A DNA stretch of 32,000 nucleotides, from NCBI RefSeq assembly GCF_000341895.1, contig NC_020409.1, forward strand, positions 330,001-362,000, given 5' to 3'. Position 1 is the first letter of the stretch. Each line of letters begins with the position of its first letter. Positions 13,847 through 19,521 of this stretch are shown piece by piece. A program made the position numbers and the translations under genes. The notes under the pieces were generated by a model. That model had not been told where the DNA came from. It saw nothing but the letters and a program-made list of their open reading frames with translations, and did no database searches. The DNA is from Pseudodesulfovibrio piezophilus C1TLV30. Its GTDB lineage: Bacteria; Desulfobacterota; Desulfovibrionia; Desulfovibrionales; Desulfovibrionaceae.

Positions 13847-14001
13847 GAATCATGAATAACAAATCTAATCAGAGAGATTCCCGCCGTATTCATCTCACTT
13901 GATTGCTTTTCCCAATAATAGGGAGTAATTACTTACTTAGTAATCCCTGTTTTTTATCAATATTATGCTGGCTTAATCATAAAACCAATGGAGTTAAGTT
14001 G

Positions 14002-16080
14002 ATGAAGATCAAATCTCACTGGTTGCTTCTGGTTTTTTGGTTTTTTTTATGTGGGGTCTTTGGCTTGGCTTTTGTTGTGGGGAATGGGGGGGCTTTTAGC
14101 GGGGCAGTAATTGTCTCATTTATCATTATAGTGGGTGGGATGATTTATATACGGGCCTCGCAAAAGAAATTTTACAAGGTTCTTGATGAGCTAGTCGAGC
14201 CGTCCTTTTTGGAAAAAAAAATTTGTTTTGAACCTACCACAAATTTTGAAAAGTCAGTTTGTTCCTTGGCTTCGGTTTTGCGAGAAAAGCAAAAGGCCAT
14301 ATCTTTTTATGAAGAATCTTTGAAGAATATTGGGAGCCCTCTTTTTATTTTTGATCAAATGGGGCGGATAATTTGGGTTGGATCACCTGCTTTGGCGCTT
14401 GTGCAAAGAACGCCTACCCAGGTGATTGGCTTTTCCTTTGCACAGGCCTTCTTTAATGAAACAGTTCCAACTGAGGTTGAGAAAGCGCTCCAAAGTCATC
14501 AATCGGTCATAGTTTCCCTTGAGCGGAAACTGTGGGATGGCAGACCTCTTAAGGGCAAAATGTTTGTGAATCCGGTGATTGCTTCTGATGATCAAATTGG
14601 AGCTGTGGGTTTTTTTGTGGATACGACTGAGTTGATAGAGCAGGCTCAGGCGACGCAGCAAGAACGTATTATTCATGCAGGAGAAACATTGAGCGGGCTT
14701 GCTGAACATTTAGCATCAGCAACGGAACTTTTATCTGCCTCTGCGGATGATCAAGCTCAGGGAGCGAAAAAACAGCGTAGTCAAACGGAAGCAGTCGCTT
14801 CAGCCATGGAAGAAATGACAGGGACTGTTATTAATGTTGCCCAGAATGCCGCGGCAACAAGTGATGCTGCGAAAGACGCACAACAGTCTGCTGCTCAAGG
14901 TGTTTCTATGGTAAACAAAGCTGTTGCAGCGATTACTGGGGTCGCCGAATCCACCGATACGTTGGGCCATCAAATTTCCGAACTTGATTCTCAAGCTGGA
15001 GATATAGGGAAAATAATCAACACTATAAGTGAGATAGCTGATCAAACTAATTTGCTCGCTCTCAATGCTGCTATTGAGGCTGCGCGGGCTGGCGAAGCAG
15101 GGCGAGGCTTTGCTGTGGTAGCAGATGAAGTCCGAAAATTGGCTGAAAAAACAGTTTTGGCAACCAAAGATGTTTCGGAAGTTATTCAAAATATTCAAAA
15201 ACAGTCACATGATGCATCAGACACAATGCGAACGACAGAACATCTCGTTCTGGAAAGTACAGATTTGTCTAATTTGGCAGGCGATGCTCTTCAGCAAATT
15301 CTCACTAGTATGGATAATATGGTTGCAAGAGTCTCTCAGATTGCGACAGCCGCAGAGCAACAGTCGACAGCTGCTGAGCTGATAAATAGAAGTATTGATG
15401 AGATTGCTGAAATAGCGAGTGACTCTGACGAAGCTGCAGATCAGGCAGCAGGAGCAACACGAGATTTGGCTGGTCTGGCTCGGGAACTTTTGGGTGTTGC
15501 AAATGAATTCATGCACGGGGGTGGTGAAGGGCGCTTGCTGGAATCCGGAACAACGCTCAATGGTGTCCTTCCAATAATCACTCAGGATTTTATTCGACAA
15601 ACATATGGAGCTGAAGCCTATGATGGTTTGCAAGAAGAGATGGGGATCAAGACATTTCTGCCAACGGAAAGTTATTCAGATTCGGTCATGATGGAAATGG
15701 CAGAGTTGCTCTCAGCTTTGGAAGGAGTTGCAGTAAGGGATTTCTTCTTGGATCTTGGGCGAGTTACGATTAAAAAGTTTCATGAAATGTACCCTCAGCA
15801 CTTCCAGGATGAACCTTTGAAGAATTTTTATTTGAGAATGAATGATATTTACGGGGAATTACTTTCAAAAAATAACGGGGTCAGGCTGCCGAGCTTTACT
15901 TTTGAAGACAAAGGAGATGAGTTGTTTATAAACTATAGGTCTGGTCGTGGATTCTTCGATTTTTTTGAAGGGGTGCTTCTGGGGGCGGCTGATTTCAAGG
16001 GAGAAAAGGTTTCCATAGCAATCAAACCACTGGATGAAAATACAGCCAGAGCAGAAATTCTCTTCTACGGAAAAGCATGA
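14002..16080 (+). CDS. methyl-accepting chemotaxis protein: TM hairpin, PAS, MA signalling domain, C-terminal H-NOX-like domain
   Basis: The ATG at 14002 follows GGAG. Two adjacent TM helices with no periplasmic domain. PAS-like block ([15 protein letters not shown]...[11 protein letters not shown]). Invariant MCP hairpin tip [41 protein letters not shown]. The last ~174 aa align by eye to H-NOX. Confidence 0.92.
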
Positions 16081-16211
16081 TCTTTTTCAGTTTATAATTT
16101 ATAATGGGCTACTTGTGTTCTTTTCTGTGATAGTGATCATGGCATTGAATATGAGAGCGTTTTTTCAAGATGTACATCACGGTAGTTAGCATTCATTGAG
16201 GAGCATTGAGG

Positions 16212-18416
16212 ATGTCCGACGATCTCAACAGGCAGATATTCAGAGAAGAAGCTTACGATCTCCTTGGAGAACTTGAAGGCGCTTTGCTTGAGTTGGAAGA
16301 AAATCCAGATGATATGGATTTGATTAATCAGATTTTTCGTGCCCTGCATACCATAAAAGGGTCCGGGTCCATGTTTGGATTCGAGGATATTGCCGAATTC
16401 ACTCATGAAGTTGAAACTGTTTTTGATATAGTTAGAAATGGTGAACTGAAAGTTTCACCAGCTCTGTGCGGTCTTGGGCTCAAATCGCGTGATTATATCA
16501 AGTCTATGCTCGACGGTGAAGCGGCAGCAGATTCTCCTGTGAGGGATGAAATCCTTGATGGTTTGAAGGATATTTCAGGGATGGGTGATGCTGAAGAGCC
16601 CAGGCTCGTGGAAAGTTCGGAAGTTCTTGTTTCACCGGATGACATAGAGGAGGGGGGCGAATCCTCTGATTCTGTCCGCTATAAAATCAGGATGATCCCC
16701 AGACCTGGTTCAGATGTTGATGAGTCGATGCTTAAATCCGTTTTCGACGAGCTTGAAACTCTTGGGGAATTTTCTATCGTTTCCAGACCTCAAGATTCAG
16801 ATGGGACACACCCACTTGGAGGTGAATGGGAACTGTCTCTTGACACTGCTGTGGGCGTGGATGATGTCAATGATGTATTTCTTTTTGTTGATGCTGATTT
16901 GGCCATTGAAATAAGTGAATTTAATGAGTCTCTATCGAGTTCTCTTAATGGGGAAGCGGAAGGAGTTACCACATCTCCTGAGCAAATTGTTCCGACTTCT
17001 CCTCTTGCACCCCCAAAAACATTGCAGCCTACAGGGGCTGGCACACCCCTTGAAACTCCGCCTCCCAAGCTTGGAGAGTTGTTGATCGATTCTGGAGAAT
17101 TGACGGAAAGAGATGTTCAAGAGGCTCTCCAAAAACAGAAACCATTGGGCCAGATTCTCGCAGAGGATGGAAAGATCGAGCCGGATAAGGTTGAGAAAGC
17201 TGTTCAAAAGCAAATAGAAGTCAAGGAAAGAGAAGCCAATAAGAAACGTCAGGAAGCAATGTCTTCTATTCGAGTTGCTGCGGACAAATTGGATTTTCTT
17301 GTCGATCTTGTTGGTGAATTGGTCATTGTTCAGGCCCAGATATCTCAGGTTGTCAGTGAGAGGAATGATCCGCAAATGACTGCTCTGGCTGAGGAGCTGG
17401 AGCGTTTGAGTGATGAGTTGCGAGATTCTACTCTGGGTATACGCATGTTGCCGATTGGCACTTCCTTTTCCAAATTTAAACGGTTAGTGCGTGATCTTTC
17501 CGGTGAGCTTGGCAAGGAGATTGGACTGTCGACAAGTGGAGAAGACACTGAGCTTGATAAAACAGTGATTGAGCGACTTGGCGATCCTATGGTCCATTTA
17601 TTGAGAAACAGTCTTGACCATGGAATTGAAACCCCCGAGGAGCGTCAGGCACAAGGTAAGCCATCTCAAGGGATGATTCTTCTTTCTGCCGAGCATTCCG
17701 GTGGTGAAGTCCTGATTAGAATCACGGATGATGGACGTGGGATGAGTACGGAAGCCATTCGTGAGAAAGCCATCGAACGCGGTTTGATCCTGAGAGATAC
17801 CGAGTTGACAGAAAAAGAATTGCTAAAACTCATTTTCGAGCCAGGTTTCTCAACAGCAAAAGAAGTGACAAATGTCTCTGGTAGGGGAGTCGGGATGGAC
17901 GTGGTCAAACGTGCCATTGATTCTTTGCGGGGGACTATCGATATTGACAGCAAACCGGGACAAGGGACGACAATTACGATTCGATTGCCTTTGACTCTGG
18001 CCATTATAGATGGTTTGCAGGTTCGCGTTGAAAATGAGTATTATGTTATTCCCTTATCCTTGGTTGAAGAGTGCGTTGAACTCTCTCGAAGTGAAGTAGA
18101 AGCGAGTGATTCTGCACAGCGAATTTTGCATCTGAGAGGGGAGATTGTCCCCTATATCCATATTCGTGATTGGTTTGATATTGAGGGAGATAACCCTCCC
18201 ATTGAGCAGATTGTGATAACCGGAGTCGAAGGGAGCCGGGTTGGCATTGTCGTGGATACAGTCATCGGTGAGCATCAGACCGTCATCAAGAGTTTGAGTC
18301 GAGTTTACAAGGACGTTGAGGGCATTTCCGGAGCCACAATTAAAGGGGATGGTTCCATTGCATTGATCTTGGATATACCAAGTTTGGTTCGTCGTGTTGT
18401 GGCTGAATCCAAGTAA
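16212..18416 (+). CDS. cheA: chemotaxis histidine kinase CheA
   Basis: Hpt P1 domain with FRALHTIKGSG. Also a dimerisation segment, HATPase boxes (HLLRNSLDHGIE, DDGRGM, GRGVGMD, GQGTT) and a C-terminal CheW-like P5 domain. The ATG at 16212 follows GAGGAG. Confidence 0.93.
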   Translation: MSDDLNRQIFREEAYDLLGELEGALLELEENPDDMDLINQIFRALHTIKGSGSMFGFEDIAEFTHEVETVFDIVRNGELKVSPALCGLGLKSRDYIKSMLDGEAAADSPVRDEILDGLKDISGMGDAEEPRLVESSEVLVSPDDIEEGGESSDSVRYKIRMIPRPGSDVDESMLKSVFDELETLGEFSIVSRPQDSDGTHPLGGEWELSLDTAVGVDDVNDVFLFVDADLAIEISEFNESLSSSLNGEAEGVTTSPEQIVPTSPLAPPKTLQPTGAGTPLETPPPKLGELLIDSGELTERDVQEALQKQKPLGQILAEDGKIEPDKVEKAVQKQIEVKEREANKKRQEAMSSIRVAADKLDFLVDLVGELVIVQAQISQVVSERNDPQMTALAEELERLSDELRDSTLGIRMLPIGTSFSKFKRLVRDLSGELGKEIGLSTSGEDTELDKTVIERLGDPMVHLLRNSLDHGIETPEERQAQGKPSQGMILLSAEHSGGEVLIRITDDGRGMSTEAIREKAIERGLILRDTELTEKELLKLIFEPGFSTAKEVTNVSGRGVGMDVVKRAIDSLRGTIDIDSKPGQGTTITIRLPLTLAIIDGLQVRVENEYYVIPLSLVEECVELSRSEVEASDSAQRILHLRGEIVPYIHIRDWFDIEGDNPPIEQIVITGVEGSRVGIVVDTVIGEHQTVIKSLSRVYKDVEGISGATIKGDGSIALILDIPSLVRRVVAESK

Positions 18417-18453: not shown

Positions 18454-19521
18454 ATGGCAAAGAAAATTCGAGTTCTTATTGTAGATGATTCTGCTGTGGT
18501 CAGGCAAACTCTTGAAGATATATTGAGTTCCGATCCTGATATCGAGGTGATGGGAACAGCCTCAGATCCGTATGTCGCGGCCCAGCGGCTCAAGACAGAA
18601 GTTCCAGATGTCATAACGCTGGATATCGAAATGCCGCGTATGGACGGCCTGACTTTTTTGCAGAAGTTAATGAAGCAGAAACCTATTCCCGTCGTTATTT
18701 GTTCATCTGTTGCAGAGAAAGGTACAGGAAACGGTTTGAAAGCCCTGGAGCTTGGTGCTGTAGAAATTATCACCAAGCCCAAAATCGGGACAAAAAAATT
18801 TCTTGAAGAATCCAGCATTCGCCTCATTGACAAGGTCAAGGCCGCAGCAATGGCCAAAGCAAAACCTGCCAGTGCGATTACGCCAATCAAGATTGCACCC
18901 AAGCTTGATGCAGATGCGGTCATACCTATGGGAAAATCTCAAGCCATGGGGACAACGGAAAAGATATGTCTCGTGGGAGCCTCGACTGGGGGAACGGAAG
19001 CTCTTAAGGTGTTTCTTGAGATGCAGCCTCCAGGGTGCCCTCCTATTGGGATAGTCCAGCATATGCCTGAACATTTCACCAAAGCATTTGCAAATCGGTT
19101 GAACTCCATTTGTCAGATTACAGTGAAAGAAGCTGAAGATGGAGACCCCATGCTGCGTGGGCAGGCTTTGATCGCTCCGGGTGACAAGCATATGTTACTC
19201 AAGCGAAGTGGCTCTAAATATTATGTCGAAGTCAAGGCGGGACCACTTGTTTCCAGGCATCGGCCATCTGTTGACGTCTTATTTCGCTCGGGGGCGAGGT
19301 ATGGAGGTGGTAATGTCGTCGCCGCTATTATGACAGGAATGGGAGATGATGGTGCCAAGGGTATGAAGGAACTCTACGATGCTGGTGCATACACTATTGC
19401 TCAAGATGAAGCGACATGTGTCGTTTTCGGGATGCCACAGGAGGCTATTAAGCACGGTGGTGTACACAAGGTGATGCCACTTCAGCAAATAGCAGGCGAA
19501 ATCGTCAAAAGTTGTGGCTGA
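18454..19521 (+). CDS. cheB: protein-glutamate methylesterase/glutaminase CheB
   Basis: REC domain (VLIVDDS...[11 protein letters not shown]) plus methylesterase domain ([24 protein letters not shown]). Confidence 0.95.

Follow-up and report, generated by a model that had tools for sequence, protein, structure and literature searches.

Cyclic di-GMP (c-di-GMP) is known to reach bacterial chemotaxis through MapZ and CheR1 in Pseudomonas aeruginosa, through YcgR at the flagellar motor, through PilZ-containing chemoreceptors and through the c-di-GMP-binding, CheY-like Cle proteins of Caulobacter. PlzC in V. cholerae provides another such route (PMC12799141). The system analysed here would follow the same logic, in which the overall level of c-di-GMP in the cell shifts the output of chemotaxis or of the motor. 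However, the known routes use PilZ or CheY-like receptors that act on methylation, phosphatase or motor, whereas the putative receptor described below has an unrelated fold and lies inside the kinase.

The closest described systems carry the MshEN_N module, which consists of two tandem copies of the motif RLGxx(L/V/I)(L/V/I)xxG(L/V/I)(L/V/I)xxxxLxxxLxxQ (Wang et al., 2016) and for which the motif start was later widened to (R/K/L)LG. Isolated MshEN_N (residues 1-65) binds c-di-GMP with a KD of 0.35 μM. For a fragment of the Aeromonas veronii CheA (residues 261-390), isothermal titration calorimetry (ITC) yielded a KD for c-di-GMP of 2.6 μM (Wang et al., 2016, Nat Commun 7:12481, Supplementary Tables 4 and 6). 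The original prediction, which knew of no such module in a CheA, was therefore mistaken on this point: Wang et al. (2016) list the exact architecture, with binding for one CheA, and both have thus been in print since 2016. The present analysis adds a large CheA subfamily with a signature of its own, a predicted helical continuity with the P3 domain, and natural loss variants. No study of an effect of c-di-GMP on the kinase activity of a CheA was found in the literature searched.

The CheA studied here comes from a Pseudodesulfovibrio-like relative of sulfate reducers and is encoded in a 32-kb stretch of DNA (32,000 nucleotides), referred to as the window. Its relevant features are given below; residue numbering throughout follows the 736-aa open reading frame (16206-18416).

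13903-16080, plus strand: chemoreceptor upstream of cheA, with PAS, MCP signalling and C-terminal H-NOX/HNOB domains (Pfam)
16212-18416, plus strand: cheA, 734 aa from the ATG at 16212; the upstream TTG at 16206 gives a 736-aa ORF
16230-16514, plus strand: P1 (Hpt) phosphotransfer domain, aa 9-103 (Pfam PF01627, E 8.1e-18)
16692-16961, plus strand: P2-like region, approximately aa 163-252, moderately conserved, with 'DVFLFVDAD' as its C-terminal end
16962-17066, plus strand: hypervariable Pro-rich linker, aa 253-287 (top-residue frequency 0.18 and 54% gaps among 120 orthologues)
17067-17138, plus strand: MshEN_N motif 1, KLGELLIDSGELTERDVQEALQKQ, aa 288-311, predicted helix 1, Gly turn and helix 2
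17139-17141, plus strand: one-residue spacer, Lys312, between motif 1 and motif 2
17142-17213, plus strand: MshEN_N motif 2, PLGQILAEDGKIEPDKVEKAVQKQ, aa 313-336, predicted helix 3, Gly turn and start of helix 4
17214-17264, plus strand: 17-residue connector, IEVKEREANKKRQEAMS, aa 337-353, predicted helical
17262-17432, plus strand: P3 dimerisation domain, aa 353-409 (Pfam PF02895, H-kinase_dim, E 5.1e-13)
17586-17996, plus strand: P4 kinase domain (HATPase_c), aa 461-597 (Pfam PF02518, E 1.6e-20)
18012-18395, plus strand: P5 CheW-like domain, aa 603-730 (Pfam PF01584, E 1.1e-28)
18454-19521, plus strand: cheB (REC and methylesterase), directly downstream of cheA (PF01339, E 6.2e-65; PF00072)

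A database protein (P0001) of 734 aa, identical to the window CheA over 100% of its residues, agrees with translation from the ATG at 16212. Pfam Hpt, H-kinase_dim, HATPase_c and CheW domains were found in canonical CheA order, each above its gathering threshold, and the CheA model NF007835 matched the window protein with an E value of 6e-147, yet under its equivalog cutoff. Between P1 and the Pro-rich linker, aa 163-252 had a top-residue frequency of 0.46, compared with 0.18 in the following linker (120 orthologues). This region gave no Pfam match, and a sequence search with aa 149-255 gave no PDB match. It lies where a P2 domain is expected and has the widely conserved 'DVFLFVDAD' at its end; its role in CheY binding is putative; a 'DVF[IL]FVEDD' element upstream of the insert also occurs in distant family members. 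The original prediction had placed the insert between a P1/Pro-rich linker and P3. Its location after the Pro-rich linker and before P3 was confirmed, but P1 is not followed directly by that linker, since the P2-like region lies between them; the corrected order is P1 - P2-like - Pro-rich linker - insert - P3. Based on the Pfam domain limits, the insert (aa 288-336) ends 17 residues N-terminal to P3.

Translation of 17067-17213 (plus strand) yielded KLGELLIDSGELTERDVQEALQKQKPLGQILAEDGKIEPDKVEKAVQKQ, whose 49 residues comprise two 24-residue motifs and one Lys and are identical to those first reported. As had been claimed, both halves are in register with the MshEN_N motif: each matches 10 of the 11 positions specified in the relaxed pattern of Wang et al., the single miss being position 11. 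Residues at the ligand-contact positions are L289, G290, V304, L308 and Q311 in motif 1 and L314, G315, V329, V333 and Q336 in motif 2, where Val conservatively replaces Leu at positions 17 and 21. In MshE, the substitutions G11L and G40I, which correspond to G290L and G315I in the window CheA, abolish binding. Core positions 6, 7 and 12 are hydrophobic (LI..L and LA..I), and position 11 is charged (E298 and K323). All three deviations listed in the original prediction, namely Lys/Pro at position 1, Glu/Lys at position 11 and a one-residue spacer, were present. At position 1, the Lys falls inside the extended consensus and the Pro inside the relaxed set [RKPN] of Wang et al. Between the two halves, 9 of 24 residues are the same and nucleotide identity is 46%; this low value rules out a recent DNA duplication and points to an old one.

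When position 11 was left free, the relaxed motif matched the six translated frames of the 32-kb window at just these two adjacent sites, while shuffled six-frame sequence gave a mean of 0.13 matches. The segment is rich in Glu, Lys and Gln, like many single helices, and could on that basis be read as a generic charged helical linker that fits the motif by coincidence. Against such coincidence, none of 20,000 shuffles of the CheA sequence contained two motif matches.

Profile searches led in the same direction. As expected from the original prediction, an MshEN profile was matched end to end: NF053729, a curated NCBIfam model of 53 positions named 'cyclic di-GMP-binding domain-containing protein, MshE-related', aligned its positions 1-53 of 53 to aa 288-336. 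On the isolated fragment it scored 39.2-39.8 bits (E approximately 3e-10; cutoff 38), and on full-length CheA it was borderline, at 34 bits against the same cutoff. All 52 orthologue fragments searched (52/52) matched this model, with a best E value of 5.8e-16. The expected match to PF05157 (T2SSE_N) was not obtained: at E ≤ 10 this model found nothing in the whole CheA, in a 74-aa fragment or in a 49-aa fragment. Its silence, which agrees with a generic linker, probably reflects that the Pfam model also covers a C-terminal subdomain that is missing from the insert. Weak matches to DUF4388, TMP_3 and SPC25 were under the cutoffs of these models and were set aside. When a profile of the insert was searched against the PDB, all 13 matches at E ≤ 0.01 (13/13) were MshEN/GSPII domains. 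They included Thermus thermophilus PilF, the nearest relative by sequence among solved proteins (E 1.9e-24 for the whole chain and 1.3e-12 for residues 303-359), PilB (9e-8) and MshE (5HTL, 1.3e-7); the entry for a PilF c-di-GMP-binding domain, 8PDK, was matched with an E value of 3.2e-7. In a protein search with the insert profile, the matches listed were 56-125 aa long; a few were labelled as PilB/GspE fragments or regulators and none as CheA, and this search was not used to judge the spread of the module among CheA proteins. These results indicated, at the level of sequence, homology between the insert and the N-subdomain with which MshE, PilB and PilF bind c-di-GMP.

An AlphaFold model of the insert (66 aa, pLDDT 92.5) contained helices at fragment residues 7-13, 19-28, 32-38 and 44-65. 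Two conserved Gly turns thus divide the predicted insert into four helices, which argues against a single linker helix, and the Q-K-P turn at the spacer lay in a block with pLDDT of approximately 94-96. A Foldseek search of the 66-aa model against the PDB gave only E values above 4, with PilF GSPII-A third (TM 0.34), and thus recovered neither MshE nor PilF with a meaningful score; for so small and helical a model this outcome was uninformative and was counted neither for nor against.

Among 120 orthologues, the top-residue frequency was 0.68-0.70 in the insert, compared with 0.18 in the adjacent linker; that of P3 was 0.92. In motif 1 of these orthologues, G3, L6 and G10 were conserved at 100% and L21 and Q24 at 98%. 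The invariant columns coincide with the MshEN signature positions G3, L6, G10, L21 and Q24. Clustering at 50% identity yielded 110 CheA-type representatives; G3 and L6 of motif 1 were present in 110/110 and so were G3 and Q24 of motif 2. Poor conservation, which had been named as an argument against the module, was thus not observed, since the insert is conserved beside a hypervariable linker. Nonsynonymous differences amounted to 0.21-0.40 per site and synonymous differences to 0.61-0.91 per site; as synonymous sites were saturated (pS up to 0.91), pN and pS are given instead of dN/dS. The insert is under position-specific purifying selection. Together with the curated profile alignment over its full length, the MshEN/GSPII identity of all PDB profile matches and the shuffling result, this motif-specific conservation leads us to consider the generic linker already refuted. 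Two minus-strand ORFs over the insert (16790-17068 and 16932-17375) were dismissed as by-products of the coding strand, because the plus frame is conserved at the protein level and pN is well below pS.

The same alignments defined a CheA subfamily. At least 110 CheA clusters (50% identity), mostly from Desulfovibrionales, carry the module; in public annotation, the module-bearing clusters are named just 'CheA'. A one-residue spacer was found in 101 of the 110 cluster representatives. Among 117 orthologues, 80 had a one-residue spacer that was K or R, and the other 37 had 5-11 residues at this point. Position 11 of motif 1 was acidic throughout the subfamily (D in 59/110, E in 9/110), and the connector had a modal length of exactly 17 residues (69/110). 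Three features thus mark the subfamily: the single-residue spacer, 'ERGD' within motif 1, and a connector of 17 residues. Natural variants also occur: the CheA of locus L048 lacks the module, and P0101 and P0103 have one hybrid motif only. The spacer and the acidic position 11, although real departures from the consensus as originally listed, are shared across the subfamily and do not mark degeneracy of this particular copy.

Comparison with two of the closest described systems placed these departures in context. In the Aeromonas veronii CheA, an MshEN_N module likewise stands straight before P3, in the same domain order, and motif 1 also lacks Arg at position 1 (Met in 'MLGQLL'). As read from the supplementary alignment, that protein has a spacer of approximately 9-10 residues versus one in the window CheA, hydrophobic residues at position 11 of both motifs (AL and AV) where the window has charged ones, and a connector to P3 of approximately 12 residues versus 17. 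Moreover, it is gammaproteobacterial, whereas the window CheA is a member of the large subfamily, found mainly in Desulfovibrionales, whose spacer is one residue long. Vibrio cholerae MshEN (5HTL), the four-helix bundle from which c-di-GMP-binding MshEN_N was first defined, shares with the insert two tandem 24-residue motifs, the positions Leu2, Gly3, Gly10, Leu17, Leu21 and Gln24, and a twice-repeated helix-turn-helix layout that is also predicted for the insert. In MshE, the spacer has 5 residues in a 53-residue domain, position 1 is Arg in both motifs and position 11 is Ile/Phe; the window CheA has a one-residue spacer (K312) in a 49-residue domain, Lys/Pro at position 1 and Glu/Lys at position 11. 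In MshE, an alpha/beta MshEN_C subdomain and then a T2SS/T4P ATPase come after the module, whereas the module of the window CheA stands alone and is predicted to be helix-fused to a kinase dimerisation domain.

These differences raise the question whether the insert retains a MshEN_N fold that no longer binds a nucleotide and serves as a structural or docking element, for example by lengthening the P3 bundle at its N-terminal side or by docking another chemotaxis protein. The binders compared have spacers of 5 (MshE), 7 (PilF GSPII-C, by alignment) and approximately 9-10 residues (Aeromonas CheA), all longer than the single residue of the window CheA. Position 11, charged in both motifs, belongs to the hydrophobic core in MshE, and I19R is one of the eight changes recorded in XpsE, which does not bind. 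XpsE and PilF GSPII-A are homologues that have lost c-di-GMP binding, the NF053729 score was borderline in the full-length protein, and absence of the module (L048) or its reduction to one hybrid motif (P0101, P0103) is evidently tolerated. However, the non-binders are altered at contact positions, every one of which is kept in the window CheA. Gly3 and Gln24 are invariant over 110 divergent clusters, and Gln24, which the MshE and PilF descriptions present only as a ligand contact, would be hard to explain in a ligand-free module. We therefore consider loss of binding unlikely.

PilF also bears on the residues at positions 1 and 11. Its GSPII-B domain has Lys at position 1 of motif I and binds c-di-GMP at 6 nM, and a K167R change made binding 25-fold worse; GSPII-C has Pro at position 1 of motif II and binds at approximately 500 nM (Neissner et al., 2024, J Biol Chem 301:108041). 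The Lys/Pro deviation singled out in the original prediction is thus real but no sign of degeneracy, as both residues occur in c-di-GMP-binding PilF domains. In the sequence alignment, GSPII-C, a binder, starts motif II with the same 'KPLG' as the window CheA, and its motif I has a charged Lys at position 11, compared with Lys in motif 2 here. GSPII-C has three motifs, two of which form its binding site, and the one with Pro may not be among them; its Pro is therefore not an airtight precedent. The PilF domains further differ in having a C-terminal subdomain and in regulating a pilus ATPase rather than a kinase.

A different dinucleotide ligand, such as 3'3'-cGAMP or pGpG, with specificity set by the short spacer together with the acidic residue at position 11, appears very improbable. 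The subfamily peculiarities, i.e. its spacer of one residue and 'ERGD' in motif 1, are fixed, and V. cholerae MshEN_N binds cGAMP detectably (KD 3.3e-4 M). This binding is, however, approximately 660-fold weaker than that of c-di-GMP, and binding of c-di-AMP was undetectable. In addition, neither half of the insert has changed at the positions that contact guanine, which argues for a symmetric di-guanine ligand, and the window yielded no evidence of cGAMP signalling.

We infer from homology that the window CheA binds c-di-GMP. The preferred reading, to which we assign a probability of about 0.65, is that the insert is a 49-residue module of the MshEN_N type that binds c-di-GMP and may tune the chemotaxis kinase as a direct second-messenger input. 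Each CheA protomer would most likely bind one c-di-GMP with roughly micromolar or sub-micromolar affinity. By analogy with the MshE structure, one GMP half would sit in each motif, above hydrophobic clusters made by Leu2, Leu17 and Leu21 beneath the bases; the backbone amides of Gly3 would contact the guanine edge, and Gln24 would contact the ribose-phosphate. AlphaFold modelled the insert and P3 with one helix over fragment residues 41-101; helix 4 is thus predicted to continue through the 17-residue connector into helix 1 of P3. This helix would carry three motif-2 contact positions before running unbroken into the P3 bundle, so that ligand binding might be expected to alter the tether. Specifically, occupancy may make the base of the P1-P2 tether stiffer or change its orientation with respect to P3 and P4, and may in this way tune autophosphorylation or phosphotransfer. 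Coupling to kinase activity, and the sign of any effect, are speculative, and inhibition at high c-di-GMP is a guess.

In related loci, which were retrieved with the single window insert fragment as query, the H-NOX chemoreceptor adjoins cheA in ten cases (L001-L004, L006-L010 and L053) and lies approximately 3 kb upstream of it in nine further Desulfovibrionaceae loci; the position of cheB is syntenic in most. No genes for GGDEF, EAL or HD-GYP proteins were found within the 32-kb window. Desulfovibrio vulgaris is reported to have active response regulators that produce c-di-GMP (PMC4114195). A more specific proposal, that the one-residue-spacer MshEN_N is a rigidly coupled switch that gates the CheA kinase through a single helix and is tied to the H-NOX receptor, is put forward as tentative and, on balance, doubtful.

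The locus offers a concrete, testable system rather than a new principle, and the natural loss variants may serve as controls. If the proposal of a rigidly coupled switch is correct, it would make CheA itself a receptor for the second messenger across a large and so far unstudied clade, and the c-di-GMP signal would be tied to an H-NOX chemoreceptor to which cheA is genomically linked in many members. The c-di-GMP routes studied so far act elsewhere, on receptor methylation, phosphatase or motor; if the module binds c-di-GMP and this alters kinase output, the messenger that governs sessile and motile states would act in these bacteria on the enzyme with which the chemotaxis pathway begins.

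The nucleotides at 17067-17213 of the window encode two tandem 24-residue motifs joined by a single residue, KLGELLIDSGELTERDVQEALQKQ-K-PLGQILAEDGKIEPDKVEKAVQKQ. This translation was identical to that of the original prediction, which had placed a tandem MshEN-like, possibly c-di-GMP-binding module in the linker of a CheA. The insert ends 17 residues upstream of P3 (Pfam domains below in residues of the 736-aa open reading frame). The identical database protein, of 734 aa, fits a CheA start at the ATG at 16212.

13903-16080, PAS/MCP/H-NOX chemoreceptor gene
15550-16077 (+), C-terminal H-NOX domain of the chemoreceptor
16206-18416, open reading frame containing the insert (cheA, 736 aa)
aa 9-103, Hpt (P1)
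aa 288-336 (17067-17213, +), insert
aa 353-409, H-kinase_dim (P3)
aa 461-597, HATPase_c (P4)
aa 603-730, CheW (P5)
18454-19521, cheB

Antisense open reading frames of 92 and 147 aa (16790-17068 and 16932-17375, both minus strand) overlap the linker and insert region. They were treated as non-coding by-products rather than genes, because the plus frame showed protein-level conservation, with pN well below pS.

When all six frames of the whole window were searched with the relaxed motif of Wang et al., leaving position 11 free, the two adjacent insert sites were the only matches, and none of 20,000 composition-preserving CheA shuffles contained two matches. The motif match is not a chance event. 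The proposed Pfam family, PF05157, was not recovered in a profile search. A dedicated NCBIfam model of 53 positions, NF053729, matched aa 288-336 over its full length (1-53/53), scoring 39.2-39.8 bits (E about 3e-10) for the fragment alone and 34 bits in full-length CheA, against a curated cutoff of 38. Weak matches to the C-terminal region of NfrB, a c-di-GMP-activated glycosyltransferase, were also detected. A profile of 52 orthologous inserts retrieved 13 PDB sequences at E ≤ 0.01, among them Thermus thermophilus PilF (1.9e-24), PilB (9e-8), Vibrio cholerae MshE (5HTL, 1.3e-7) and the PilF c-di-GMP-binding domain (8PDK, 3.2e-7). Because all 13 were MshEN/GSPII domains, the homology was considered secure: the CheA insert is almost certainly an MshEN_N homologue, which bears out the predicted resemblance.

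Matches of the insert profile to other proteins included many short sequences (P0121-P0240; 56-125 aa among the matches listed, E down to 7e-12). For a few, the source label was CopG/Arc/MetJ-type or 'predicted transcriptional regulator', and PF14332 (DUF4388) was present in some. These may be stand-alone MshEN_N-like proteins, and some, from short contigs, may be fragments. Five proteins of about 1,160-1,180 aa (P0246, P0247, P0249, P0254, P0259), recovered with the profile of insert plus P3 described below and each with 6-8 separate stretches that match its MshEN_N part, look like tandem module arrays.

The nearest CheA relatives (57-77% identity) were found in Pseudodesulfovibrio, Salidesulfovibrio, Maridesulfovibrio and Desulfovibrio aminophilus. 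Across 120 aligned orthologues, the linker directly upstream of the insert was hypervariable (top-residue frequency 0.18, 54% gaps); the corresponding frequencies for the two motifs were 0.68 and 0.70. Invariant or near-invariant columns (G3, L6, G10, L21 and Q24 in motif 1; G3, L6, G10 and Q24 in motif 2) coincided with the defining positions of the MshEN motif. Over the 49 insert codons, comparison with nine relatives gave 0.21-0.40 non-synonymous differences per site, with synonymous sites saturated (0.61-0.91). The insert was thus conserved rather than a poorly conserved generic linker, and NF053729 matched 52/52 orthologue fragments (best E 5.8e-16).

Natural variants of the module were also observed. 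In two orthologues of about 61-62% identity (P0101 and P0103), the tandem pair is replaced by one hybrid 24-residue motif, 'RLGEILVRKGVVKAEDVDNAVKDQ', as expected if exactly one repeat unit plus spacer (25 residues) had been deleted; by residue count, the connector to P3 still has 17 residues in P0103. A complete CheA from a Desulfovibrionaceae MAG (L048:546-2807), in syntenic H-NOX-MCP/CheA/CheB context, lacks the MshEN motif, its long Pro/Ala-rich linker running straight into P3. This natural loss variant would make a useful control.

A profile of insert plus P3, searched against 1.84 billion cluster representatives, yielded 7,231 matches at E ≤ 1e-3 and 1,337 at E ≤ 1e-10. Module, connector and P3 were co-linear in 110 of the best 150 matches, most of them proteins of about 700 aa. 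All 110 had G3 in both motifs and Q24 in motif 2, and 101 had the one-residue spacer. Position 11 of motif 1 was Asp in 59 and Glu in 9; position 1 of motif 2 was Arg in 37, Pro in 34, Lys in 17 and Leu in 12. The connector from Q24 to the P3 'SxRV' measured exactly 17 residues in 69/110. The module also occurred in CheA genes of Nitratidesulfovibrio, Solidesulfovibrio, Fundidesulfovibrio, Desulfohalobiaceae and Deferribacterales MAGs, many with a fully canonical second motif (e.g., '...AGQ K RLGDILADSGAVTPDAVQSALAEQ' in locus L016). From these sequence counts and loci, the short spacer and acidic position 11 are subfamily traits and not decay of the window gene. Named members were annotated only as "chemotaxis protein CheA".

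The deviations listed in the original prediction (Lys and Pro at position 1, charged position 11, one-residue spacer) were compared with characterized binders. In MshE, Leu2, Leu17 and Leu21 form hydrophobic clusters beneath the guanines, Gly3 backbone amides bind the guanine edge, Gln24 binds the ribose-phosphate, and positions 6, 7, 11 and 12 make up the core of the bundle (Wang et al., 2016). Mutation of hydrophobic contact residues lowered affinity more than 10-fold, G11L and G40I abolished binding, and mutation of Arg9 cost less than 5-fold (Wang et al., 2016). PilF GSPII-B, with Lys and Leu at position 1 of motifs I and II, binds at 6 nM, and K167R made binding 25-fold worse (Neissner et al., 2024). 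GSPII-C, the PilF segment closest to the insert, has Pro at position 1 of motif II and binds at roughly 500 nM, similar to MshE (Neissner et al., 2024); aligned with the window CheA, its motif I has Lys at position 11. Validated binders thus share Lys and Pro at position 1 and offer partial precedent for a charged position 11, whereas none has a one-residue spacer. In 37/117 sequences of the orthologous group, 5-11 residues occupy the spacer site, indicating a surface loop. The main alternative, a non-binding structural or docking derivative, is unlikely given the invariance of Gly3 and Gln24.

AlphaFold2 modelling of a 66-aa fragment with 52 homologues (pLDDT 92.5) predicted four helices (fragment residues 7-13, 19-28, 32-38, 44-65), broken at two conserved Gly residues and the Q-K-P junction; this predicted arrangement is the MshEN_N layout. 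A Foldseek search of the PDB with this model was uninformative (all matches E > 4). In a 132-aa model of insert plus P3 (pLDDT 82), one unbroken helix (fragment residues 41-101) comprised module helix 4, connector and P3 helix 1, followed by P3 helix 2. This continuity in a monomer model, with the conserved connector length, suggests mechanical coupling of the ligand site to the dimerisation bundle.

The che cluster consists of three genes, for the chemoreceptor, CheA and CheB, flanked by housekeeping genes. The window contained no GGDEF, EAL or HD-GYP genes and no cheW, cheY or cheR. The closest relatives share the gene order EF-G-like - DUF2062 - H-NOX-MCP - CheA - CheB, and nine more distant Desulfovibrionaceae loci have the H-NOX receptor about 3 kb upstream of MshEN-CheA. 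The chemoreceptor is genomically linked to MshEN-CheA across many Desulfovibrionaceae (L001-L010, L053, L020/21/27/28/30/31/32/35/47) and adjacent to it in close relatives. In other bacteria, enzymes of c-di-GMP turnover are often under the control of H-NOX proteins, so a thematic H-NOX/c-di-GMP link is conceivable. Near nt 15850 (MCP aa ~650), the window H-NOX has Tyr in place of the proximal heme ligand His102 of Tt H-NOX (1U4H), with the YxSxR motif intact ('NYRSGR'); the His was present in 20/20 related chemoreceptors of the examined loci ('RMNDVHAQLTKDQPGIKPP'). The change is an in-frame cluster of substitutions spread over about 15 residues and not a frameshift. This H-NOX copy may lack the usual heme ligation.

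The original prediction implied that such a module was new to CheA. Association of MshEN with CheA is stated in the main text of Wang et al. (2016), with a KD of 2.6 μM for Aeromonas veronii CheA fragment 261-390 (Supplementary Table 6), so both the architecture and c-di-GMP binding by one such protein were already published. The window module belongs to a distinctive CheA subfamily that is itself part of this known kind. No study of a c-di-GMP effect on a CheA kinase was found in the available literature. We consider it probable (roughly 0.65) that the module of the window CheA binds c-di-GMP, most likely one molecule per CheA protomer; that binding regulates the kinase is a more tentative proposal. 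Through helical continuity with P3, the module would modulate P1/P2 presentation to P4, and our guess is that high c-di-GMP would lower autophosphorylation.
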